This document shows positions 21,762-63,137 of a stretch of 64,000 nucleotides of DNA, in pieces. A model generated the notes under the pieces. It searched no databases. It had not been told where the DNA came from and worked only from the letters and a program-made list of their open reading frames with translations. Source of the stretch: a virus. Both the position numbers and the translations under genes were made by a program. The stretch is taken from positions 46,651 through 110,650 of the IMG/VR virus record IMGVR_UViG_3300012347_000193, one strand, 5' to 3'. The number at the start of each line of letters is the position of its first letter. Within the stretch, counting starts at the first letter, position 1.

Positions 21762-22531
21762 GAGGTGTTTTACTTTTTGCCTTTAATAATCCTACCACTG
21801 ATTATTACAAAATGGCAGTTGCAACAGCAAAGAGAATCGACTTCTTCTTAGACCTACCAGTGACTATTGTAACTGATTCACAACCAGAGAACCCAGAGTT
21901 CAACATTATTAACGTTAACGCTGAGACTAGCAACACTAAGGATAGTAACCCCTGGTATAATAAGGGTCGTTACAGGGCATATGAATTGTCCCCATATGAT
22001 GAAACAATCATTTTAGACACAGATTATCTAGTGAACAGCAGTCAATTATTAAAGTTATTCGATATCTATGATGGGTTCATGTGTCACGGATCAACGTTCT
22101 TTCTAACTGAAGGCACTGACGTAGAATATATTAGCGAACACAGTTTCAGAACACTATGGGCAACTGTGATTATCTTTGACAAGTCAGAGCGAAGCAAGCA
22201 TATATTTGAATGCTTGGAGATGGTACAGAACAACTACAGTCACTATATTAATCTCTATCACATAATGAGTCCAATGTATCGCAACGATTATGGAATCACA
22301 ATCGCTACCCGAATAGTTGATGGGCAACTAGATAACCCCGCTAACGTCATTCCCTGGGACTTGACACACGTTGGTAAAGATGTTATAGTGTATAGAGATA
22401 CGGGTGAGCTATTCAACACTGAATACACAATACTAAACACAAAAGGAAAACGACCTGAGTATATTAAAATTAAAGATATGGACTTTCATTGCATGAGCAA
22501 GACGACATATATGGAGCTAGTCGATGAGTAA
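21758..22531 (+). CDS. GT-A fold glycosyltransferase-like protein
   Basis: DxD motif in 'YELSPYDETIILDTD'; paralogue of the next gene. Confidence 0.65.
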   Translation: MRGVLLFAFNNPTTDYYKMAVATAKRIDFFLDLPVTIVTDSQPENPEFNIINVNAETSNTKDSNPWYNKGRYRAYELSPYDETIILDTDYLVNSSQLLKLFDIYDGFMCHGSTFFLTEGTDVEYISEHSFRTLWATVIIFDKSERSKHIFECLEMVQNNYSHYINLYHIMSPMYRNDYGITIATRIVDGQLDNPANVIPWDLTHVGKDVIVYRDTGELFNTEYTILNTKGKRPEYIKIKDMDFHCMSKTTYMELVDE

Positions 22532-23261
22532 AGGCTTCGTTATTATGGCACAGAACACCGACACGACCGACTACGTTGCATGTGCAGAACAACTAAAGAA
22601 CAGTATCCATCGTCATATGCCCGACGCCAATGTGACTATCATCACTGACTTACCTTATGGTAACTTGGGTGGCTTTCAGAATGATTGGCAAGTCTACGAA
22701 GCAAGCCCGTACGATTACACGATTAAGCTAGAAGCCGACATGGTCATGACAAAGAATGTTGACTATTGGTTCGATGTGCTGGCTATACAATCAGTGGTTG
22801 TCTGCGATACAATCAGAGACTACAAAGGTAACATCTCACCCGTAAAAGCGTACAGAGAGTTCACGCAAGTCAATAATCTGCCTGACGTATACAATGCCAT
22901 GACGTTCTTTAAGAAGTCAGAAGAAGCAAGACAGTTCTTTTTATTAGTGAGAGACATATTTGAACACTGGGACGACTACAAGGCAACACTAGTATGTGAT
23001 ACTGACGAAGAGGTAAGCACTGACTGGGTATACGCTATCGCTTGTCATATTATGGGTATAGAGAAGACGACATTGCCATATGATGACTTCAGTATGGTTC
23101 ATATGAAGCAACTGATTAACAACACTGCAACAGAAGATTGGACACAATCATTGGTGTATGAATTGAATGATTCGGTCAGAGTACAAACGATTCCTCAACT
23201 GTACCCATTTCATTACCATGTAAAGACGTTCGCTAAAGAACTAGAGAAGCATTATGGTTGA
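22524..23261 (+). CDS. GT-A fold glycosyltransferase-like protein
   Basis: 'YEASPYDYTIKLEAD' (ExD variant) and a C-terminal FHYH motif; paralogue of 21758-22531. Confidence 0.6.
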   Translation: MSKGFVIMAQNTDTTDYVACAEQLKNSIHRHMPDANVTIITDLPYGNLGGFQNDWQVYEASPYDYTIKLEADMVMTKNVDYWFDVLAIQSVVVCDTIRDYKGNISPVKAYREFTQVNNLPDVYNAMTFFKKSEEARQFFLLVRDIFEHWDDYKATLVCDTDEEVSTDWVYAIACHIMGIEKTTLPYDDFSMVHMKQLINNTATEDWTQSLVYELNDSVRVQTIPQLYPFHYHVKTFAKELEKHYG

Positions 23262-53264: not shown

Positions 53265-54041
53265 TTATCGCGGTGTGATGTTAGATTTTGGTATAATATT
53301 CATATCAAAAATCCAGCTATCTAATAACTCATTAGATATGTAATCGAAAGGTATCCAGCAATATCCGTTTAAGCCCCAGTCAGATCCGAAACTGTTTCTA
53401 GCTAGTAATATTCTCTTTTTCAAGTTATACCCTACAAAACACATAGCATGAGCACCTATGGGAGATTGTGTCTCGTATGCTTGTGGCATTCTAATGGTTG
53501 TATAATTATCGTATAAATCTTCAAACGATTCGTAAACCTTCATACTAAACACTACTGGATACTCTTTGTTAATAGCATCTAGGATATCATTTAAGTCTGA
53601 AATTCTATAGTAATTCTTGATAGTTCTATTTTTTGCATCTTCATAGCAGGGAATACTAGGAGTCATGGCAAATGACTCTACTAGATAGGGCCAAGCAGCT
53701 TCGCTACAAATACCAAATTTTTGCACAGCCTTGACTGCATCACGTAGATATGCCCCTCCATCTTGATTGATAGTGTTTTCTAGCGCACGTGCATTGTAGT
53801 AGACGAACAATCTACTAAGGTCCGTAAACTTATCAGGTGCTTCCTTATTCATCAGTAACTCATATGCGCCTACGACTGCCTGGCCTGTACAACTGCCCAA
53901 GTGGCCTTGATCCTCAATGGGACTAGCCCATTGTCTCAAGTCAACATACTCACGTAGAGGTAGTCTGGCAAAGGAGTAAGGCAAGTCTCTCCAATCACTT
54001 GGGTCTTGCCTTACATTATATTTTGCTTTGAGCAGTAGCAT
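53265..54041 (-). CDS. Papain-family (C1A) cysteine protease
   Basis: VDLR..., DQG.LGSC (Gln/Cys), SRLFVYYN, GAHAM..VGY (His) and RNSFG..WG..GY (Asn). Confidence 0.93.
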   Translation of the reverse strand: MLLLKAKYNVRQDPSDWRDLPYSFARLPLREYVDLRQWASPIEDQGHLGSCTGQAVVGAYELLMNKEAPDKFTDLSRLFVYYNARALENTINQDGGAYLRDAVKAVQKFGICSEAAWPYLVESFAMTPSIPCYEDAKNRTIKNYYRISDLNDILDAINKEYPVVFSMKVYESFEDLYDNYTTIRMPQAYETQSPIGAHAMCFVGYNLKKRILLARNSFGSDWGLNGYCWIPFDYISNELLDSWIFDMNIIPKSNITPR

Positions 54042-54331
54042 TAATCTTCAGCTTCTATCTTAACAATTTCAGGATAGTCTTCCATTTCAAGTACGTCACC
54101 TTCTTCTGATAAATCTACTAAATTTTCAGCAATAATATGTAGTTCAACATCTTGCCATGCGTCTTCTCTCGCCCATTCTAATAAACGAATCATCAAAGGT
54201 ACATTGAGTTTAATAACGTCTTCTTCATTTTCGTTCGGCTTAGTTAAAGTTCTTTTACGCATTGAAGCCGGCATTACGGCCGGGTCAGCAAAGTGTTCTT
54301 CGACAATTTTATGTGTGATTTTTTTATACAT
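54041..54331 (-). CDS. 96-aa acidic protein with N-terminal MYKKITHKIVEEHF tag
   Basis: Start reassigned to MYKKITH (AGGA RBS); core 'VPLMIRLLEWAREDA...LH'. Confidence 0.75.
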   Translation of the reverse strand: MYKKITHKIVEEHFADPAVMPASMRKRTLTKPNENEEDVIKLNVPLMIRLLEWAREDAWQDVELHIIAENLVDLSEEGDVLEMEDYPEIVKIEAED

Positions 54332-54342
54332 GGTATATCCTA

Positions 54343-54744
54343 TTATAGAATCAACCATTGTGTACCGTTGTACACAAATGTTAGTGAACCATACGGTGCA
54401 TTGATAACGGCAGTTGCGGCACCATCAATAGTACCAGCTGTTGGTGTGATAGTGATAGGAGTTGCAGGTGCAGCCAATCCTAATCCATCTTTGATTGTGA
54501 ATTCTTGACCTAGTACGCCAGCTGGCAATGTTACTGCCACAGCAACCGGACCCGGTACGGCTACATCAATTACGTTATCAGTTGCGGCTACTACTGTGAT
54601 AGGAGTCGCAACTGCGGTTCTGATATCAACTAATGCAGCACCGCTGGCACTGATTGTAATTGTATTAGCACCTGTACCTGTTGTTGGTGCTATCGTGATA
54701 CCTGTTCCTGCTAGGATTGAGGTTGGGTTATTTGTATATGACAT
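54343..54744 (-). CDS. Small beta-rich protein (family A)
   Basis: Domain 'VTLP.G..G....IKD..G.A....IT......IDG......IN..YGS....Y.GT.W'; strong RBS. Confidence 0.75.
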   Translation of the reverse strand: MSYTNNPTSILAGTGITIAPTTGTGANTITISASGAALVDIRTAVATPITVVAATDNVIDVAVPGPVAVAVTLPAGVLGQEFTIKDGLGLAAPATPITITPTAGTIDGAATAVINAPYGSLTFVYNGTQWLIL

Positions 54745-54777
54745 TTTATTTTTCCTTTAGTTAAATGTTTTGAAAGA

Positions 54778-55086
54778 TTATGATATAGTCTTCCAGTTTG
54801 TGCCATCATATACAACTTGTATATGACTGTATCCACCATTAAGAATAGCGAAGGAAACACCGTCTATGTTTTTTCCTCCGGCACTCGTAATAGTAATGGG
54901 ATTTGTTTTAGCCTGACCAGAATAGTCTTTGATGTATAATGCTCGTCTATTGTTATCGTCACCGTTGCCAGTTGCCGGTAATATAACAGATGCAGGCCCA
55001 GGTATGTCAACCATGATTACTTCGTCGGTATTTGCGACAGTATACGGTGTTGTTGTAACGATTCTTACTCTATATTCGATTGCCAT
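54778..55086 (-). CDS. Small beta-rich protein (family A)
   Basis: Same domain (YIKDYSG.A..NPITI...IDG...YDGTNW); AGGAG RBS. Confidence 0.75.
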   Translation of the reverse strand: MAIEYRVRIVTTTPYTVANTDEVIMVDIPGPASVILPATGNGDDNNRRALYIKDYSGQAKTNPITITSAGGKNIDGVSFAILNGGYSHIQVVYDGTNWKTIS

Positions 55087-55095
55087 GTTATCTCC

Positions 55096-55650
55096 TTAAC
55101 TGATTCTAGTTAGTGTGACCTTGACACTATTGCCAGTTGGTCTTGTTGGGGTTACTGCGGCTGGTAAAGCTGTGAGTGCAGCGGTGATATCAGCACTTGA
55201 CCAGCACAGTTGAATGAATCCCCCTGCTGGAATGTTCAAGGTAAAGTTACCCGATGTAAAAGTCAGTGCTAACGTGTTGACTAGTTCAATGTCTTGTCTT
55301 GAACCCACTACGTCTACTCCGTTTAGTCTAAGCCATATGCTAATGTCAGTAGTTCCACCAGAAGTCTTGGACAAAATAAGAGTGAACAGCTTTGTGTATG
55401 TGCCAGCATTTACTACAGTAATGTCTGTGCCACCTACCACACTAACGCCATTGGCAGGTCCAGTGACGTTGAATGTGGCAATATTAGTAGTACTGGCTAC
55501 TGGATTAGGCTGTGTAGTGCTGTCAGTAAAGAAACCGTAGTTCAACAAGCCAGTACTACCAGATATCACACCGTCAGTGACACTGATGCCAGCGCCTACT
55601 TTTACGATTCCGTAGTCTGTAGTTGATGATAGAGGTGCTTTGTATGACAT
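55096..55650 (-). CDS. C1q/TNF-like (BclA C-terminal-like) beta-sandwich protein
   Basis: 'YGFF.....Q.NP.....N..TFN....G....GGT.ITV...G.Y...F...IWLR.NG'; paralogue of 55660-56214. Confidence 0.55.
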   Translation of the reverse strand: MSYKAPLSSTTDYGIVKVGAGISVTDGVISGSTGLLNYGFFTDSTTQPNPVASTTNIATFNVTGPANGVSVVGGTDITVVNAGTYTKLFTLILSKTSGGTTDISIWLRLNGVDVVGSRQDIELVNTLALTFTSGNFTLNIPAGGFIQLCWSSADITAALTALPAAVTPTRPTGNSVKVTLTRIS

Positions 55651-55659
55651 TTTCTTTCC

Positions 55660-56214
55660 TTATAATTGTATGATAGTGCATCTTACACTAGGGGTTACCG
55701 GTCTCACCGGAGCTACCTGTGCTGGTACTGTTAATAAACGCATGGCAATGTCTGCACTGGACCATGCTATTTGAATCGTGTCGCCGGCTGTTAATGCCAA
55801 AGTAAAATTCCAACTTGCCACCAATACACCAACTGCACCAATGACAACACTCTGCGAATTTGTATCAGTATAGTTTACACCGTTGCGTTTAATCCAGAAA
55901 TCTATTAAGTCATCACCTGCATCAGTTTTATCTACCTGTGCAGTAAATTGTAAATTGTAGTTGGCAGTTTTACTAACTGTTATATTTGTTCCACCGACTA
56001 GCGTGATACCAACATTGACAGCGGCGTTGTTAAATGTAACAATATTTTGTGTGTTGGCCACAGGATTGGTCTGTGTAACTGTGCTGTAGAAATACGCTTG
56101 GTCCAACAGTCCTATAGGCACAACATTGAGCACTCCGTTGGTCACAGTTAGATTTGTACCCGGTGTTGTTATACCTGGAGTAGAGTTAGTAGCCAATGGT
56201 TCTTTATAGCTCAA
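55660..56214 (-). CDS. C1q/TNF-like (BclA C-terminal-like) beta-sandwich protein
   Basis: TTG start, MSYKxPL N-terminus shared with its neighbour, and 'YNLQF.AQ...FWIKRNG...L.LTAGD.IQIAW'. Confidence 0.55.
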   Translation of the reverse strand: MSYKEPLATNSTPGITTPGTNLTVTNGVLNVVPIGLLDQAYFYSTVTQTNPVANTQNIVTFNNAAVNVGITLVGGTNITVSKTANYNLQFTAQVDKTDAGDDLIDFWIKRNGVNYTDTNSQSVVIGAVGVLVASWNFTLALTAGDTIQIAWSSADIAMRLLTVPAQVAPVRPVTPSVRCTIIQL

Positions 56215-56215
56215 G

Positions 56216-57373
56216 TTACACCTGTTGTAAAGTTAATGTTCTTGTATTGACAGTTAGTGTACCTGTTATAGCAGTTGCCCTAGCAGTAACAATATCACCT
56301 ATCACTAATGCTACAGGTCCTGTTGTTGTTATACTAGCTGATGTAATTGTTGTTGGACCTGATACTGTGACTAACGTGCCTGGAATCAATACACCATTCT
56401 TGTAAATGCCAAAGTTAGCACTAACTGGTCCCGCAGCTAAACTTCCTGGAATGTATACGTTGCCGTTTACAATTGTAGGTAGACCGTAGCCAGTAATCAA
56501 TCCTAAGTTGGTTCCAATATTACCATTAATTACACTTGTCCCTGTATTTGCTACCGCACCGCTGTTAGTGAACAGTGCAAAGTTTTCTAGTACACCTAAT
56601 ATGATAGGAGTCGTAGTAGCGCCAGGCTCGGTCACGATGTTTGTATCAGTCGTCACTGCCCCGAGTGTAGATAATAATCTGCCATTTAATATACCACCAT
56701 TGCCAATGCCAGCAGCACCGGCTACTGCTAGTGCTGTGCCTGCAAATACTGTGTTAGCACCCAGTGCTGTCGCACCTTGGCTTACCCAGAATACGTTTTC
56801 TGCACTGGCACCATTGGTCAATACTACTTGACTTGCGGCTACACTGGTCAATGCGCCAGCGACACGGACAACAAACAATGCGTCAGGATCGCCGCCGCCG
56901 TCTAGTGTCAAGATACCTTGAATAGCAGCAGGTGTAACAACATCGTACACTCCTGGTAGTAATGTTTCCCCGTTACCAAACACGGCACCGTGTAGTACTC
57001 CACCTGGTAATGCTGCTAACTGTGCAGCAAGTGCAGTGGTTGCGGCTGCGGCTGCAGCCGTGATATCAATAAGGTCCCCGACAATACCGTAGTCTGCACC
57101 AAATGTTGCTACAAAGTTTCCATTGATTGGACTAACTAATGTCATGCCGGTAAGTGGTGTTAGACCAGTGCCAGCAAGAATTGTTTGCGGAGTTGTGCTA
57201 GTAACTGTCAACCGTAGTAGATTCGTACCAATCATGGAGTTGGTATTAACTATGCCACCTCTACGGTTGTTGCTTGCAAGTTGTGTTGCTCGTACCGCCG
57301 GTACTTGTTTACGTAAGTTGATTCCAGGACGTAATGGTCCTTGGGGAAAGTTTGCTGAAAATATACCTAACAT
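56216..57373 (-). CDS. Ice-binding-like (DUF3494) domain protein, 385 aa
   Basis: 'TLLPGVY...LTLDGGGDPDALFV...VVLTNGASAENVFW....ATLG....F.GT...GRLLS..GAVT'; start reassigned to MLGIFS (AAGGAG RBS). Confidence 0.85.
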   Translation of the reverse strand: MLGIFSANFPQGPLRPGINLRKQVPAVRATQLASNNRRGGIVNTNSMIGTNLLRLTVTSTTPQTILAGTGLTPLTGMTLVSPINGNFVATFGADYGIVGDLIDITAAAAAATTALAAQLAALPGGVLHGAVFGNGETLLPGVYDVVTPAAIQGILTLDGGGDPDALFVVRVAGALTSVAASQVVLTNGASAENVFWVSQGATALGANTVFAGTALAVAGAAGIGNGGILNGRLLSTLGAVTTDTNIVTEPGATTTPIILGVLENFALFTNSGAVANTGTSVINGNIGTNLGLITGYGLPTIVNGNVYIPGSLAAGPVSANFGIYKNGVLIPGTLVTVSGPTTITSASITTTGPVALVIGDIVTARATAITGTLTVNTRTLTLQQV

Positions 57374-57410
57374 TTTAGTGCTCCTTGTTTCTAAAAATTT
57401 GTCATTGTTG

Positions 57411-57896
57411 TTACACAATATTCCATTCTGTGCCGTCGAATAATACTGTAATACTGCCAAAATTTGTGTTAATAGTAGCAGTTGCGCTACCGTCAATTAA
57501 TTGTCCGCCTGTACCTTGTACTGTGATTGGATTAGTAGCAGCCAAGCCGCCACAATCCTTAATAATATAAACTGTTCCAAGTATGCCCGTAGGTAAAGTA
57601 ATAGTAACTGGTCCTACAGTTAATACACACAGGAAGTAATCAGTGGGTAATGCTGTGTATGTTGCGGTAACAACATCTGTTACTGCTACTGGACTTGGGT
57701 TACCGGCAGGCCCGGGTGGTCCAGGAGGTCCAGGCGGTCCCGCAGGACCAGTGCCCCCATTAGTAATAAACACATCGTTACCGGCTCCTCCAAATTGTGA
57801 TGCAACCGGATACAGTGCTCTCCTTACTAGTGGTCTTCTGATAATAGGACGGCGGCGTATTTGTGCAGTTAGTATTCCTAAATTGTTGAACATCAT
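57411..57896 (-). CDS. Collagen-like protein with family-A C-terminal domain
   Basis: Arg-rich N-terminus, GPAGPPGPPGPPGPAG, then 'ITLP.G..G..YIIKD...NPIT...IDG...FDGTEW'. Confidence 0.8.
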   Translation of the reverse strand: MMFNNLGILTAQIRRRPIIRRPLVRRALYPVASQFGGAGNDVFITNGGTGPAGPPGPPGPPGPAGNPSPVAVTDVVTATYTALPTDYFLCVLTVGPVTITLPTGILGTVYIIKDCGGLAATNPITVQGTGGQLIDGSATATINTNFGSITVLFDGTEWNIV

Positions 57897-58591
57897 TATG
57901 ACTTATCCTTCTCTTTTGCTAACCAGCCACTAAGTACAGTACGCAATAGTGAATGTTTTACCGGTGCAGGTTCTTCTTCTACTACGGGTTCTTGTGTTAC
58001 TGCAGGTTCTTCTTCTACTACGGGTTCTTGTGTTACTGCAGGTTCTTCTACTACTACAGGCTCTGCTATTGGAGCTGAGTTATCCAAGTTAATAGGTTCA
58101 TGAATGATAACAAAATCCCCACCTGATTGTACTACTCTAGTAATCGTAGGTACTGAAGGAGGCATCTCAGTTACACCACCGGTGTCAATCATACTTGTTT
58201 GTACAGGTAAATTGTATGCTGCCTGCAATTGCTCTGTTATTGAAGGTGTTATTGCATCCTGATATGACATAGGTGTTTCATCCTCAAGTATTACTTGAGG
58301 CGCAGTTGGTTCTGATATCTCTACGGGAGTGTTAGACTCACTTGCTGCAGGTTGATTTGATTTATTATAAAGCTCTAATGCTTTAGCAACAACCTCTTGC
58401 TCTGTTGGGAACAACTTTGCAGTAGGATATGGAATTAATACACCCTTAGTCTTCCATGCTATTTGACTTTCACGCAGCCATTGTTGATGGTGCGTCCCTC
58501 TCAATGCAAGATAATCTTGTATTAAGAGTTGCTTTGCAACTTGAAGTAATTCTTCTCGTTTTTTAAATTCATCTGAATTAATCTGGCTCAT
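57896..58591 (-). CDS. Hypothetical protein with helical N-terminal domain and P/E/V-rich tail
   Basis: 'REELLQ.AK..L...FPTEQEVV.KA..LY' followed by tandem EEEPAVTQEPVV. Confidence 0.7.
   Translation of the reverse strand: MSQINSDEFKKREELLQVAKQLLIQDYLALRGTHHQQWLRESQIAWKTKGVLIPYPTAKLFPTEQEVVAKALELYNKSNQPAASESNTPVEISEPTAPQVILEDETPMSYQDAITPSITEQLQAAYNLPVQTSMIDTGGVTEMPPSVPTITRVVQSGGDFVIIHEPINLDNSAPIAEPVVVEEPAVTQEPVVEEEPAVTQEPVVEEEPAPVKHSLLRTVLSGWLAKEKDKS
57965..58049. repeat. 36-bp tandem repeat (about 2.4 copies)
   Basis: TGCAGGTTCTTCTTCTACTACGGGTTCTTGTGTTAC at 57965 and 58001, with a partial copy at 58037. Confidence 0.9.
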
Positions 58592-58821
58592 AATGCTTTA
58601 CCTGCTAAATGTAATACCAATGCAAACGCACCACTCAACCCACCTGTAACAAACGATAATGCTGCTGCAAAAATCATTCGCTTATGTACCTTGTTCTGTT
58701 CAATAATTTCGTTTAGTTTATTCTCTAACGACTTATGGCGCTGGGCACACAGTGCTACGTGAGCCTCAAGGTTAGTAGATTCAATTGGCTTATCACCGGA
58801 AGAAACAGTAATCATTGACAT
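58588..58821 (-). CDS. Small coiled-coil protein with C-terminal transmembrane helix
   Basis: LEAHVALCAQRH..LE.KL followed by a hydrophobic C-terminus. Confidence 0.7.
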   Translation of the reverse strand: MSMITVSSGDKPIESTNLEAHVALCAQRHKSLENKLNEIIEQNKVHKRMIFAAALSFVTGGLSGAFALVLHLAGKAL

Positions 58822-58824
58822 ATA

Positions 58825-59529
58825 TTACTCGATAAATGATAGTGGGTACTGAGCAATAACTCCGCGACTTAACACATCTGCTAAACTTGGATAACCTTTG
58901 TTAACATGATTTGCAATACCGGTAATAACTAGTTTATTGATACCATCAATACTTTCTGCGTTCATAATAACATTGTTTGTGATACGTGCGTTGATGTTAT
59001 CAGTCCACAACTGCGTTAATGCGTGTAGCATTTCTTGTATCAACGATACAGGATACTGTCCTGGATTTAGCTTATTGAACAATTCAGCAAGTTGAGTAGT
59101 CTGTTCTGCCCACTTAATTTGCAAAGGCACAATGTCACCTTTTTTCTTTGACACTTCTACTACTTCGACTCCGGTTTCAAATATAGCATTCAACATTTTC
59201 CCGATATCACTACCGGCGCGAATGCCATAGTATGGTATAAAATAATCACCAATCATTGTTGCAGATTTAGTTAAACGTTCTTCTACACTAGGAGTTGTTG
59301 ATAAGTCAGCAACAGAGCTAACAGCATAGTTAACTAGACCCAAAGAATATTTCGTCCATAGGGTCCTGCTATCCATCCTGAAGACTAATGTTTTTTCATT
59401 CACTACAACAGAAGGTAGTGGACTTAGCGTAGCTTTAGTTGGTACCATACTGGCTTTTACTTCCGTAGGTAGTGCTAGTGGACTATCAAAGTGTTCTTCG
59501 ACTATATCGTGTGTTATCTTTTTATACAT
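58825..59529 (-). CDS. All-helical bundle protein with MYKKITHDIVEEHF tag
   Basis: Paralogue of 59531-60346 (W......S....; YG...; LA......N; AD..S.G.I). Confidence 0.75.
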   Translation of the reverse strand: MYKKITHDIVEEHFDSPLALPTEVKASMVPTKATLSPLPSVVVNEKTLVFRMDSRTLWTKYSLGLVNYAVSSVADLSTTPSVEERLTKSATMIGDYFIPYYGIRAGSDIGKMLNAIFETGVEVVEVSKKKGDIVPLQIKWAEQTTQLAELFNKLNPGQYPVSLIQEMLHALTQLWTDNINARITNNVIMNAESIDGINKLVITGIANHVNKGYPSLADVLSRGVIAQYPLSFIE

Positions 59530-59530
59530 T

Positions 59531-60346
59531 TTAACAACCCATATCGTCTAATGCATCGTACATTTCATTTTCTATTTTCTTTGCTGTGTAGTCAATTATT
59601 CCCGATGAGAACACATCAGCAAAACTAGGATTACCATTTTCTTGCTTTACTACTAAAATGTTGTATGCTCCGTCGGCAGCAATGTCCCCTGCTTCCCATT
59701 CTCTTTTCATGCGTGAGATTGCTTGCATGATATATAAATTTTCTACTTGAGTGAGGATATCTACTACTGCGGTAGAAGGCCACAATGCGTTTGCGCTTTC
59801 TAAGAAGTCACCTAGTGATTTTGTAGCATCAGCAAGAATCTTCATAGTGTCAGTTGTGTCTTTGTCATTCTTAACTTGTACAATCACGTCGGCTAATGCC
59901 AACGCAACATTAGTTAACAATGTTTTAAATTGTGTAGCTGCTTCTGTACCATAGCACTCTGAAACAATGCTAGTGATATTATCAATGTCAGCAACTAGTT
60001 TAGTTTTCAATGATTCTGTATCTGTACTACCTGATGTGATACTAACTACAAGACTGCGAATTCTCCAAGCTAATTGAGACCAGTAACTTGTACTATCTTT
60101 TTCGATTTGACTTAAAGATGAATCGTCATATACTTTGATCCAACTTTTACTTTTTGCATCATATCTGTTATTTGATTGTGATTTAGATTTTGCGGTATGA
60201 TATACAATCTCACCGGTGACAGGGTCTACGACTCCTCCCATGTTTTTAGCAGTCTTTGATTTTCTTTCAATCTTTGCTTTTAATTCTGCGGCGATAGGGT
60301 GCGCAAAGTGTTCTTCTACGATGTGGTGTGTGATTTTTTTGTACAT
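59531..60346 (-). CDS. All-helical bundle protein with MYKKITHHIVEEHF tag
   Basis: Paralogue of 58825-59529; AAGGA RBS. Confidence 0.75.
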   Translation of the reverse strand: MYKKITHHIVEEHFAHPIAAELKAKIERKSKTAKNMGGVVDPVTGEIVYHTAKSKSQSNNRYDAKSKSWIKVYDDSSLSQIEKDSTSYWSQLAWRIRSLVVSITSGSTDTESLKTKLVADIDNITSIVSECYGTEAATQFKTLLTNVALALADVIVQVKNDKDTTDTMKILADATKSLGDFLESANALWPSTAVVDILTQVENLYIMQAISRMKREWEAGDIAADGAYNILVVKQENGNPSFADVFSSGIIDYTAKKIENEMYDALDDMGC

Positions 60347-60355
60347 GATTGTTCC

Positions 60356-60562
60356 TTACCAAACTACTGTTGGTGTTGATGTTTGATTGACACCGAACAT
60401 ATTGCCGGTGTTTACTAAATTTTGATTGGAGATTGCACTGCCAATGACATTTGAACTAGAGTAGTTGCCATAGCCATAGGGAATGCCATAACTATAGTTT
60501 GGATAGGCATATGGAAAGAAGTAGCTGCTTCTGTAGTTGGGGTATAAGTAACCATAAAACAT
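60356..60562 (-). CDS. 68-aa Tyr/Pro/Gly-rich protein with shared C-terminal motif
   Basis: YPNY repeats followed by SAISNQNLVNTG...QTSTP; strong RBS AAAGGAAAATAAAAAATG. Confidence 0.75.
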   Translation of the reverse strand: MFYGYLYPNYRSSYFFPYAYPNYSYGIPYGYGNYSSSNVIGSAISNQNLVNTGNMFGVNQTSTPTVVW

Positions 60563-60858: not shown

Positions 60859-61413
60859 TTAATTGATGCTAGTTGGTGTTGAAGTTTGTGTTGTACCAGT
60901 CATTGTTCCAGTATTAACTAGACCTTGACTAGAGATAGCACTGTTCAACGAGTTCAAAGCACTGTTTGTACTTGCAGATTGGAATGCAGAAACTGCACCG
61001 CCGTAAGCAAGACCTAAACCACCGTACTGAACACCTAAGCCACTGTATGCAACGTTGGTATTAATCAATGCTGTGTTCAAGTTTTGTGTATTCAATGCGT
61101 TGACTAGACCGCGTGTCAATTCGCCTTGTTCCATTACTGCACGTGTTGTGGCAGCTGCGGTTTGAGCGACTACTGCATCTGTGCGGGCAGCAGCCAACAT
61201 TGTTTGCAATGTACCGTTAGATACTTCTTGCTTCAAGTCAGCCAATGCTGATGCATCGTGTAATGCAACTTGCATAGCGCGGTTGTTGATGTCGTTTGTT
61301 TGTGCGACTTGTAGTTTGTAGTTTTCGAATACACTATCAGAAACTTTTTCTCTTAAACTTGCAGTTTCACGTGAAAGATGAAAGAACGGGTCAGTTGTTA
61401 AAAAATCAGCCAT
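60859..61413 (-). CDS. 184-aa Ala/Thr/Asn-rich helical protein (paralogue B)
   Basis: Aligns end to end with 61602-62162; strong RBS. Confidence 0.85.
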   Translation of the reverse strand: MADFLTTDPFFHLSRETASLREKVSDSVFENYKLQVAQTNDINNRAMQVALHDASALADLKQEVSNGTLQTMLAAARTDAVVAQTAAATTRAVMEQGELTRGLVNALNTQNLNTALINTNVAYSGLGVQYGGLGLAYGGAVSAFQSASTNSALNSLNSAISSQGLVNTGTMTGTTQTSTPTSIN

Positions 61414-61457: not shown

Positions 61458-61557
61458 TGCTGAACGATAGAACCTATTTCTATCACAGCATATAATTACT
61501 TAAACGAAAAAATGACTGTTTCCATATGCTACAAGTATTGCATGTACTTCAGTACGG
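61458..61557 (-). promoter_or_regulatory. Conserved upstream element, copy 1 (operator, TAAGTA, 5' hairpin)
   Basis: Same motifs and spacing as 62185-62283. Confidence 0.6.
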
Positions 61558-61558
61558 T

Positions 61559-61583
61559 AAAAAACCTGCCGAAGCAGGTTTTT
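61559..61583. terminator. Bidirectional-type intrinsic terminator after paralogue A
   Basis: AAAAAACCTGC-CGAA-GCAGGTTTTT (TTCG loop on the minus strand). Confidence 0.85.
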
Positions 61584-61601
61584 ATATTGCAAGTTTCAAT
61601 A

Positions 61602-62162
61602 TTAATTGATACTTTGTGGATTACTAGTTTGCGTAGTGTTTGCAATGTTGCCCGTATTTATCAAGCGTTGATTTGAGATAGCACTGTCTAAAGCATTAAT
61701 AGCACTATTTGTTGATGCGATTTGTGTTGCATTTACTGCACCACTATACGCAAGACCCATACCACCGTACAATGTGTTCAAGCCACTGTATGCGACATTG
61801 GTGTTAATCAAACCTGTATTCAAGTTTTGTGTATTCAATGCGTTAACTAGACCACGTGTCATCTCACCGTTCTCCATTACTGCACGAGTAGTTTCAGCAG
61901 CAGTTCTGCCGATTACTGCATCAGTACGAGCGGCAGCTAACATTGTTTCTAATGTGCCTTTGCTTACAGCGCCTTTTAAATCAGCTAATGCTGATGTGTT
62001 GCGCAATGCTACTTGCATACCGCGATTGTTAATGTCGTTTGTTTGTGCGACTTGTAGTTTGTAGTTTTCGAAAATACTATCAGATACTTTTTCTCTTAGA
62101 CTTGCGTTTTCACGTGAAAGATGAAAGAAAGGATCGGTTGCTAGTGTTGAAATTTCAGCCAT
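61602..62162 (-). CDS. 186-aa Ala/Thr/Asn-rich helical protein (paralogue A)
   Basis: TDPFFHLSRE.ASLREKVSDS.FENYKLQVAQTNDINNR is shared with paralogue B. Confidence 0.85.
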   Translation of the reverse strand: MAEISTLATDPFFHLSRENASLREKVSDSIFENYKLQVAQTNDINNRGMQVALRNTSALADLKGAVSKGTLETMLAAARTDAVIGRTAAETTRAVMENGEMTRGLVNALNTQNLNTGLINTNVAYSGLNTLYGGMGLAYSGAVNATQIASTNSAINALDSAISNQRLINTGNIANTTQTSNPQSIN

Positions 62163-62184: not shown

Positions 62185-62283
62185 ATACTTCATATAGAAC
62201 CCATTTCTATTGTAGTATATTATTACTTAAAAGAAAAACACTTTCAAAATTACGTAGCATTTACTAGCCTGTACTTGAGAACT
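62185..62283 (-). promoter_or_regulatory. Conserved upstream element, copy 2
   Basis: Same motifs and spacing as 61458-61557. Confidence 0.6.
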
Positions 62284-62324: not shown

Positions 62325-63137
62325 TTATTTTGAGAACATTGCCAGTTGAGTGCGATTCTTTACATTAAACTTTTCGAGCAGCTTGCCTACATGTAGTTTC
62401 ACAGTGCTTTCAGTGATGTTTAGAATTTTTGCAATTGTTTTATTGCTTGCACCACGCTCTTGAATGAGCTTGAGAATCTCACCTTGCCTGGGAGTCAATG
62501 TGATTTCACTGTTATGTTTGATTTTAGTAGGGCTACCGGGCAAGTTATCTAAGATATGCTTCGGCCAGTAAGGAATGCTATTAGATAGTGCATTGATGCT
62601 TTTATTAACGTCATCAATTGAGTAGTCCACACCATCTAGCAGAACTCCTTGGCATTGAGTTCTTTGTAACTCTTTGATAAGACTTCTGGGTGTATCTTTC
62701 TTGATAACAATGCCTATCCTTAGGTCATCTTTACATGGCATAAATTTTGTAATAGTTGTCAATGCATCCATAAACTCTATCGCGGAACTTCCCGGAGGTC
62801 TAGCTAACATGTCAACGTGAATTGCCAACAAGGTCACTTTGCTTGCACTCTCTTGCAGTGCATTGGCAAGTTCAGCCCATGTACTAGGCATTGTCCACGT
62901 AAAATTAAAGTCTTCCTTAATTCTACCCGTACATTTGGGAGTACTACTATGGTCTTCTCTAAAGTAAATAACGTTTGGTTTGAGTTCTATGTTCATATCA
63001 GTACTTACAGAGTCATCTACTTCCGCATCAAATACAACAGTATAGGCTGTACTACAGTCTGGCAGTAATGAAGTTGACACAGAAAAAAATGTGTCTGGTA
63101 GTGTGCGGAAATTAATCTTCTCGGATGAGTTTATCAT
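62325..63137 (-). CDS. LuxR/NarL-family HTH transcriptional regulator with degenerate receiver-like domain
   Basis: C-terminal LTPRQ.EIL.LI..G.SNK.IA..L.ITESTVK.HV..LL.KF.V.NRTQL. Confidence 0.9.
   Translation of the reverse strand: MINSSEKINFRTLPDTFFSVSTSLLPDCSTAYTVVFDAEVDDSVSTDMNIELKPNVIYFREDHSSTPKCTGRIKEDFNFTWTMPSTWAELANALQESASKVTLLAIHVDMLARPPGSSAIEFMDALTTITKFMPCKDDLRIGIVIKKDTPRSLIKELQRTQCQGVLLDGVDYSIDDVNKSINALSNSIPYWPKHILDNLPGSPTKIKHNSEITLTPRQGEILKLIQERGASNKTIAKILNITESTVKLHVGKLLEKFNVKNRTQLAMFSK

Follow-up and report, generated by a model that had tools for sequence, protein, structure and literature searches.

Why should proteins of unrelated kinds, encoded by a single phage, begin with the same short peptide? 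This question is raised by the IMG/VR virus record IMGVR_UViG_3300012347_000193 (110,650 bp), of which the right-hand 64 kb (hereafter the window) was analysed. As the record is rated approximately 32% complete, the phage genome is expected to amount to approximately 350 kb, i.e., that of an uncultured jumbo phage with T4-type head genes. In the window, three minus-strand open reading frames (ORFs) share the start M-Y-K-K-I-T-H-x-I-V-E-E-H-F, with Pro17 after two variable positions (hereafter the tag). A first-pass annotation, made from the DNA letters, had read this start as a targeting or sorting peptide, with T4 capsid-targeting sequences and encapsulation peptides as analogies, or else as a recognition site for the C1 peptidase encoded next to one of the three genes. 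Our analyses trace the tag, a portable N-terminal module, to a single accessory gene cassette in which it goes together with that peptidase, and we tentatively propose the peptidase as its partner.

A shared N-terminus under selection as a peptide

ORF translations and a pattern scan confirmed that the three proteins, of 271, 234 and 96 amino acids (aa), have 13 of the 14 residues in common as well as Pro17. The two larger ones are distant paralogues of a single helical-bundle family (23% identity, E 9e-12), and the 96-aa protein shares nothing but the tag with them; the distinction drawn in the first-pass annotation between two paralogous helical bundles and an unrelated acidic domain was therefore borne out. 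When the tag pattern was back-translated, it matched exactly three sites in the window, as opposed to 0.05 expected from shuffled sequence. A pattern scan detected no fourth copy in the rest of the 110-kb record, and an all-against-all comparison of N-termini found no other N-terminus common to non-paralogues there. For the 96-aa gene, the start at 54331 was favoured over an upstream ATG at 54358, which is preceded by AGGA, because 15 of 17 homologues begin at the tag.

The search of viral databases that the first-pass annotation had called for was also run. The pattern scans placed the tag in 19–23 viral contigs and 115 metagenome contigs, mostly from freshwater, and 166 of the 175 pattern matches in these viral and metagenome contigs were located at the N-terminus, with only M-Y-K-K/R before the match. 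Two matches in bacterial genomes were rejected as true tags, both being internal and out of context, and were taken as chance. In viral contigs L027 and L030, five pattern matches belong to a short unrelated ORF beginning M-I-T-H-I-I-V-E-E-H-F-L, without M-Y-K-K, which could reflect chance or a distinct small gene.

The tag logo, built from homologue sets gathered without reference to the tag, reads M1 Y2 K3 K/R4 I/V5 T/S6 H7 x8 I9 V10 E11 E12 H13 F14 d15 h16 P17. Glu11 and Glu12 are invariant, and so is Ile9 in N-terminal tags. Position 8 is free, position 10 is occupied by V, I, T, F, M, K or R, position 14 is limited to F, Y, L, W and H, and position 15 is unrestricted, with Asp being the commonest residue. 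Features of a Sec or Tat signal peptide were not found, as the tag is charged and polar (K, K, H, E, E, H) and has no hydrophobic stretch before the folded domain.

The three copies in the window differ at seven of their seventeen codons (Y2, K4, I5, H7, I9, V10 and P17). Furthermore, in 134 distinct tagged genes of other contigs, all synonymous codons occur at each position of the tag; for example, Ile5 is encoded by ATT in 55 genes, ATC in 52 and ATA in 27. Since all synonymous codons are in use, conservation acts at the level of the peptide, as the first-pass annotation had deduced from synonymous differences within the window, and conservation at the RNA or DNA level was rejected. This result bears on the possibility that the conservation does not serve a function of the peptide at all, and that the copies are kept alike by a 5' RNA or DNA element, such as a translation start region, or by gene conversion that took place recently between paralogues. 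In favour of such an account, the start codon is part of every copy, and the codons for M-Y-K-K/R are retained even when the remainder of the tag has been deleted. However, the near-even codon use is joined by upstream ribosome-binding regions that differ between tagged genes, by conservation of the tag between proteins with 20–25% identity or none, and by internal tag copies that persist in fusion proteins. A gene-level explanation is largely refuted by the synonymous codon use, and we regard it as highly improbable.

A module separable from its cargo

A tag that is an integral strand of a fold common to all three proteins, a concern voiced in the first-pass annotation, was not what the models and gene comparisons revealed. 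In the AlphaFold model of the 234-aa protein (25-sequence alignment), residues 1–40 had a predicted local distance difference test score (pLDDT) <50, while residues 45–234 formed a helix bundle with values of 95–98. Residues 1–16 were unstructured in the model of a Cys-rich tagged protein as well. Besides being disordered in models, the tag can be deleted, replaced or moved inside a protein. Among the 120 homologues nearest to the 234-aa protein (P0002–P0120; L160 9001–9741), approximately 65 have in its place another N-terminal module of 35–50 residues, which has an M-Y-I/L-R/K start, a Pro-rich stretch, a hydrophobic strand and a conserved D-P-D-Q-P. In the L160 cassette, this replacement module coexists with canonical tags on a Cys-rich protein and a second helical protein. 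Some family members keep only the first four tag residues (M-Y-K-K/R), joined directly to the domain. Five or more natural fusions that join the Cys domain to the acidic domain carry the tag internally, with V-E-E-H-F intact and H7 and I9 changed (I9 to S, T or M). One fusion protein combines the tag, the acidic domain and the helical bundle, and another form joins the acidic domain to the helical bundle with the tag deleted (fusion examples: L028 1259–1771; P0139, P0143, P0147; P0153; L183 11596–12429). There is one tag per polypeptide, fusions included. The tag is hence a portable N-terminal unit in its own right rather than an element of some common fold. Moreover, the fusions suggest that the tagged cargo types act together, and the fused domains probably function in the same location.

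At least five unrelated cargo types bear the tag. Among 113 distinct complete tagged proteins, there were 83 helical bundles (207–261 aa), 28 four-Cys domains of approximately 60 residues, one His-rich 62-mer and one other protein. The helical-bundle carriers form two subfamilies. A Foldseek search of the PDB returned no significant solved relative of the helical bundle, VIA-align gave generic helix-bundle rows only (Z ≤9), and the structural neighbours in BFVD are solely uncharacterised phage and giant-virus proteins.

The four-Cys domain is the commonest small carrier (L014 3288–3569, L019 6243–6518, L029 1151–1411 and 25 more). Its four Cys are invariant and arranged as C-x2-C-x9-C-x12-C, then A-W-T. 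The spacing resembles that of high-potential iron-sulfur proteins (HiPIP), and the Pfam family PF01355 matches one of 16 members, weakly (E 0.26). An Atlas lead (0.86) points to a cluster with 12% HiPIP, and the model (pLDDT 64) has no structural match. A 380-aa tagged protein in L055 (1790–2929) contains the first part of this domain, after which a long Asn/Thr/Gln/Lys-rich low-complexity region stands in place of the four Cys.

The acidic domain of the 96-aa protein, with the core V-P-L-M-I-R-L-L-E-W-A-R-E-D-A, has 17 close homologues, nearly all of them tagged. It is also far more widespread: at E ≤1e-3 it matches 2,224 cluster representatives, of which 1,490 reach E ≤1e-10, and it can be N-terminal, in the middle or C-terminal within proteins of 72–659 aa. 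It has no name in Pfam or PHROG and no match in Atlas. One occurrence, in the 735-kb phage LR756501 (L004 7305–8186), lies within a few kb of head-closure and portal genes, which is too weak an observation to use. Given its presence in more than 2,000 protein clusters, a function learned for this domain here would reach far.

Co-occurrence of the tag with a C1 peptidase

Every tagged gene lies within one conserved cassette (one to three tags per record in five records). The cassette begins with a LuxR-type regulator, followed by one or two 185-aa helical proteins, Gly/Tyr-rich and Tyr-rich micro-proteins, and the tagged helical bundle or bundles. The second half consists of a 77-aa tail-anchored membrane protein, an acidic protein of 130–260 aa, several collagen-like or knobbed fibre proteins, an optional small tagged protein, a tagged helical bundle and a C1 peptidase. 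Besides its own regulator, the cassette has a shared operator-like element.

The peptidase belongs to the papain family (PF00112, E 1.9e-15), with a sub-threshold C39_2-like match (E 0.0014). Its closest solved relative is 3OIS (entry title 'Cysteine protease', E 9.5e-38), which we take to be xylellain of Xylella. The protein has the catalytic motifs, and neither a signal peptide nor a long prodomain. A total of 40 distinct tagged genes are located directly upstream of a C1 peptidase gene, often overlapping it.

A census of cassettes was anchored on an unrelated cassette gene, that of the 186-aa protein, and 27 cassettes of sufficient extent were scored. All 19 cassettes with the peptidase were tagged, 18 of them with a perfect tag. 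Among the eight without the peptidase, four were untagged, namely one ingroup cassette whose tags have been deleted and three distant cassettes (L202–L204), which have kept the helical proteins with neither tag nor peptidase. The remaining four were tagged and represent three lineages (L167, L171/L201 and L199), with a perfect tag only in L171/L201 (two loci). Tag and peptidase thus co-occur, but some cassettes retain the tag without encoding the peptidase. Further, conservation is highest in the tag copy adjoining the peptidase; in the other helical subfamily, the tag has often decayed or given way to a different N-terminus. The C1 peptidases found elsewhere, in Burkholderia phage FLC9 and a 595-kb phage, are stand-alone genes and uninformative.

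We tentatively favour the explanation that the tag is a docking peptide or pro-peptide private to the cassette, with the cassette's own xylellain-like C1 peptidase as its most likely partner, and consider it plausible rather than probable. The tag, of approximately 14–17 residues, would be unstructured alone and would probably become an amphipathic helix once bound, with a flexible linker next to it. Its occurrence on two or three unrelated proteins of one cassette would allow a single partner to recognise them all. The C1 peptidase might bind the tag and cleave near the invariant E-E-H-F core, with Phe14 as the possible P2 residue; alternatively, the tag might hold the peptidase in check. Either way, the peptidase would set the moment at which the tagged proteins are released or assembled. 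The papain family prefers a hydrophobic P2 residue, which fits the restriction of position 14 to F, Y, L, W or H next to a free position 15. The analyses demonstrate that the tag is portable, N-terminal, selected as a peptide, disordered, restricted to the cassette and found together with the peptidase, whereas binding, cleavage, the cleavage site and the purpose of the tag are inferred.

Several observations weigh against the peptidase as partner. In the tagged cassettes of L167, L171/L201 and L199, no C1 peptidase was found in the cassette or in the rest of the record, these records being fragments of 9–32% of a genome. L180/L022 have the peptidase without a tagged gene directly upstream. 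Asp, the commonest residue at position 15, would be an unusual P1 residue for a papain-type enzyme. Finally, the co-occurrence of tag and peptidase rests on few independent evolutionary events.

A possible docking helix and the other genes of the cassette

The cassette offers other candidate partners as well. The tag could be an uncleaved docking helix, similar to an encapsulation peptide, that tethers the tagged proteins to another cassette product such as the 77-aa membrane anchor, the 231-aa acidic protein or the knobbed fibres. By helical-wheel reasoning, positions 8 and 15, which vary freely and are spaced by seven residues, would share one helix face, and Y2, I5, I9 and H13 would be opposite. 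A single tag per polypeptide even in fusions, and the fusion of cargo domains to each other in some phages, are consistent with such a tether. In 19 distinct cases, a tagged gene of the 234-aa type is followed by the membrane-anchor gene, and the 77-aa membrane protein is a candidate docking partner of the tag. On the other hand, no co-variation of the tag with candidate partners was visible, as the tag is nearly invariant and the tags inside one cassette vary independently, and this near-invariance contrasts with the 30–40% identity of most candidate partner proteins. We consider an uncleaved docking helix unlikely. The features of the window discussed here are listed in the table below.

Table 1. 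Location of the tag copies, their carriers and associated cassette genes in the window
Feature	Position	Strand	Evidence or remark
Tag copy 1 (residues 1–17 of the 271-aa protein)	60296..60346	-	ORF translation and pattern scan
Tagged helical-bundle protein, 271 aa	59531..60346	-	Subfamily adjoining the C1 peptidase in most related cassettes
Tag copy 2 (residues 1–17 of the 234-aa protein)	59479..59529	-	ORF translation and pattern scan
Tagged helical-bundle protein, 234 aa	58825..59529	-	Residues 1–40 disordered, 45–234 a confident helix bundle without solved relative
Tagged 96-aa protein	54041..54331	-	Shares only the tag with the other two
Tag copy 3 (residues 1–17 of the 96-aa protein)	54281..54331	-	ORF translation and pattern scan
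Acidic domain of the 96-aa protein, about residues 33–93	54053..54235	-	Very widespread unnamed phage domain, often untagged
C1 (papain-family, xylellain-like) cysteine peptidase	53265..54041	-	Start shares one base with the stop of the 96-aa gene
77-aa tail-anchored membrane protein	58588..58821	-	Encoded immediately after the tagged 234-aa protein; weak likeness to XhlA/holin
LuxR-type regulator	62325..63137	-	Heads the cassette that holds all tagged genes

Two further repeated elements were observed in the cassette. Paralogous genes for proteins of 184 and 186 aa are each preceded by the same element of approximately 40 nucleotides (61470–61505 and 62195–62235, minus strand), T-T-T-A-A-G-T-A-A-T..A-T-A-G-A-A-N5-T-T-C-T-A-T, which contains a palindrome and is likely the cassette promoter and LuxR operator. 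A hairpin with a T-run (61565–61590) follows the upstream gene of the 184/186-aa type. In addition, a Tyr-rich 68-aa protein and the two 184/186-aa proteins (60356–60562, 60859–61413 and 61602–62162, minus strand) have a common uncharged C-terminal tail of approximately 27 residues (..S-A-I-S-x-Q-x-L-V-N-T-G..Q-T-S-T-P..), a second shared peptide of the cassette.

Head genes and cultured relatives

The part of the record that lies beyond the window includes genes for a Gp23-type major capsid protein (PF07068, 328 bits) and a gp21-type S77 prohead protease (PF03420, 100 bits), along with a coiled-coil scaffold protein and a portal protein. Just downstream of the capsid gene (21972–22791 of the record), two small paralogous genes encode proteins of approximately 113 and 122 aa, both beginning M-A-F-T-N-K-L-H-G, which may be head decoration proteins.

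With these head genes, a T4-style capsid-targeting sequence has to be considered. The tag would dock proteins on the prohead core, the gp21-type protease would cut after Glu11 at I-x-E, and the cargo would be left in the head or expelled with the core. The capsid protein of this phage presumably matures at L-S-E, on the basis of its alignment to T4 gp23, and we count this in favour. The invariance of I9 and E11 in N-terminal tags, together with the variable position 10, matches the I-x-E pattern, a motif that is short and common, and the 110 kb available hold no other N-terminus common to non-paralogues. Internal proteins of T4 have portable propeptides of a similar kind, i.e., N-terminal targeting sequences of 10–19 residues that are cut by gp21 at L/I-X-E and can be moved to foreign proteins (PMC9026906; PMC3012670). 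The gp21-type protease and gp23-type capsid protein of this phage, together with the I-x-E in its tag, thus make the analogy with T4 stronger than the first-pass annotation could have foreseen.

However, the tag occurs only in one accessory cassette with its own regulator, and no T4 late-promoter consensus was found within the cassette. The capsid protein shares 68% identity with its counterpart in Vibrio phage 2.275.O, 66% with that of Pseudomonas phage PA5oct and 64% with those of the Serratia BF/Erwinia group, and these cultured relatives have neither the cassette nor the tag. The tag profile had no match in Vibrio phage 2.275.O or in three further large phages (Burkholderia phage FLC9 and two huge uncultured phages), and tblastn found no homologues of the tagged 271-aa and 234-aa proteins among 50,697 deposited phage records. 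In outgroup cassettes, the helical proteins are retained but untagged. There is also strong conservation past the putative cut (E12-H13-F14..P17), unlike in T4, and internal tags lose I9 yet keep V-E-E-H-F. The tagged cargo is acidic to neutral (median isoelectric point 5.8), unlike the basic internal proteins of T4. Overall, we view capsid targeting of the T4 type as rather unlikely.

These results leave the reading of the first-pass annotation partly in place: the tag is a portable, disordered N-terminal module on unrelated cargo, but its confinement to one accessory cassette with its own peptidase and its absence from cultured relatives do not sit well with the T4 analogy. Because the tag is confined to the cassette, is absent from cultured relatives and tracks the C1 peptidase, recognition by this protease is at least as likely as capsid targeting.

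Comparison with known systems

In the literature searched, no paper contained the tag motif. It is possible, though doubtful, that tag and C1 peptidase constitute a previously unknown address-and-maturase pair, or that the tag is a new, sequence-unrelated capsid-targeting sequence of T4-like jumbo phages. As an address and maturase, one peptide would label unrelated building blocks and a papain-type enzyme would remove the label, leading to co-assembly into an accessory structure. The tag marks uncharacterised proteins in a cassette of many uncultured freshwater jumbo phages, and its partner would reveal what the cassette builds and whether phages time accessory assembly by leader-plus-protease logic.

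Among known systems, double-glycine leaders and C39 peptidases resemble the cassette in that several genes with a conserved N-terminal leader share one cluster with a cysteine peptidase, and the cassette peptidase has a weak C39-like match. The tag, however, contains no Gly-Gly, no transporter was found among the cassette genes, the cargo consists of folded proteins of 60–270 aa rather than small peptides, and the enzyme is of the C1/xylellain type. Staphopain and staphostatin are an operon-coupled pair of cysteine protease and inhibitor. They are comparable in combining a cytoplasmic papain-fold peptidase that lacks a long prodomain with a translationally coupled small neighbour gene; here, by contrast, the neighbour is upstream, its fold varies and only the tag is constant. 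That the tag acts as a peptidase inhibitor, by analogy with this pair, is pure conjecture.

Encapsulation peptides of bacterial microcompartments (BMCs) and encapsulins are similar to the tag in length (approximately 15–20 residues), in the disordered linker, in the diversity of cargo and perhaps in a helical amphipathic periodicity, which for the tag is suggested by its pattern of variability. Among the cassette genes scanned against Pfam and PHROGs, none matched a BMC shell or encapsulin family, the sole HK97-type shell being the phage capsid, and encapsulin peptides are mostly C-terminal, unlike the N-terminal tag.

The T4 capsid-targeting sequences (IPI, IPII, IPIII and Alt, processed by gp21) are likewise short, portable N-terminal peptides carried by unrelated proteins, in a phage that encodes a protease of the gp21 type, and the I-x-E of the tag lies at nearly the same distance from Met1. 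To our knowledge, the tag has no evident similarity to the T4 peptide beyond M...I-x-E. Like the T4 peptides, the tag occupies the extreme N-terminus and falls within 10–19 residues (PMC9026906), and the record encodes a gp21-type prohead protease and a scaffolding core. The tag differs in being restricted to one accessory cassette, in its conservation for at least five residues past the putative cut, in its acidic cargo and in its linkage to a cysteine peptidase. Portable short targeting peptides are rare and useful, and two of them, the capsid-targeting sequence of T4 and the encapsulation peptides, have been turned into tools that load particles with foreign proteins. The tag is more strictly conserved than either, with 12 of 14 positions fixed across otherwise dissimilar proteins, and, if it were part of an address-and-maturase pair or a new capsid-targeting sequence, it would be a ready-made transferable recruitment tag.

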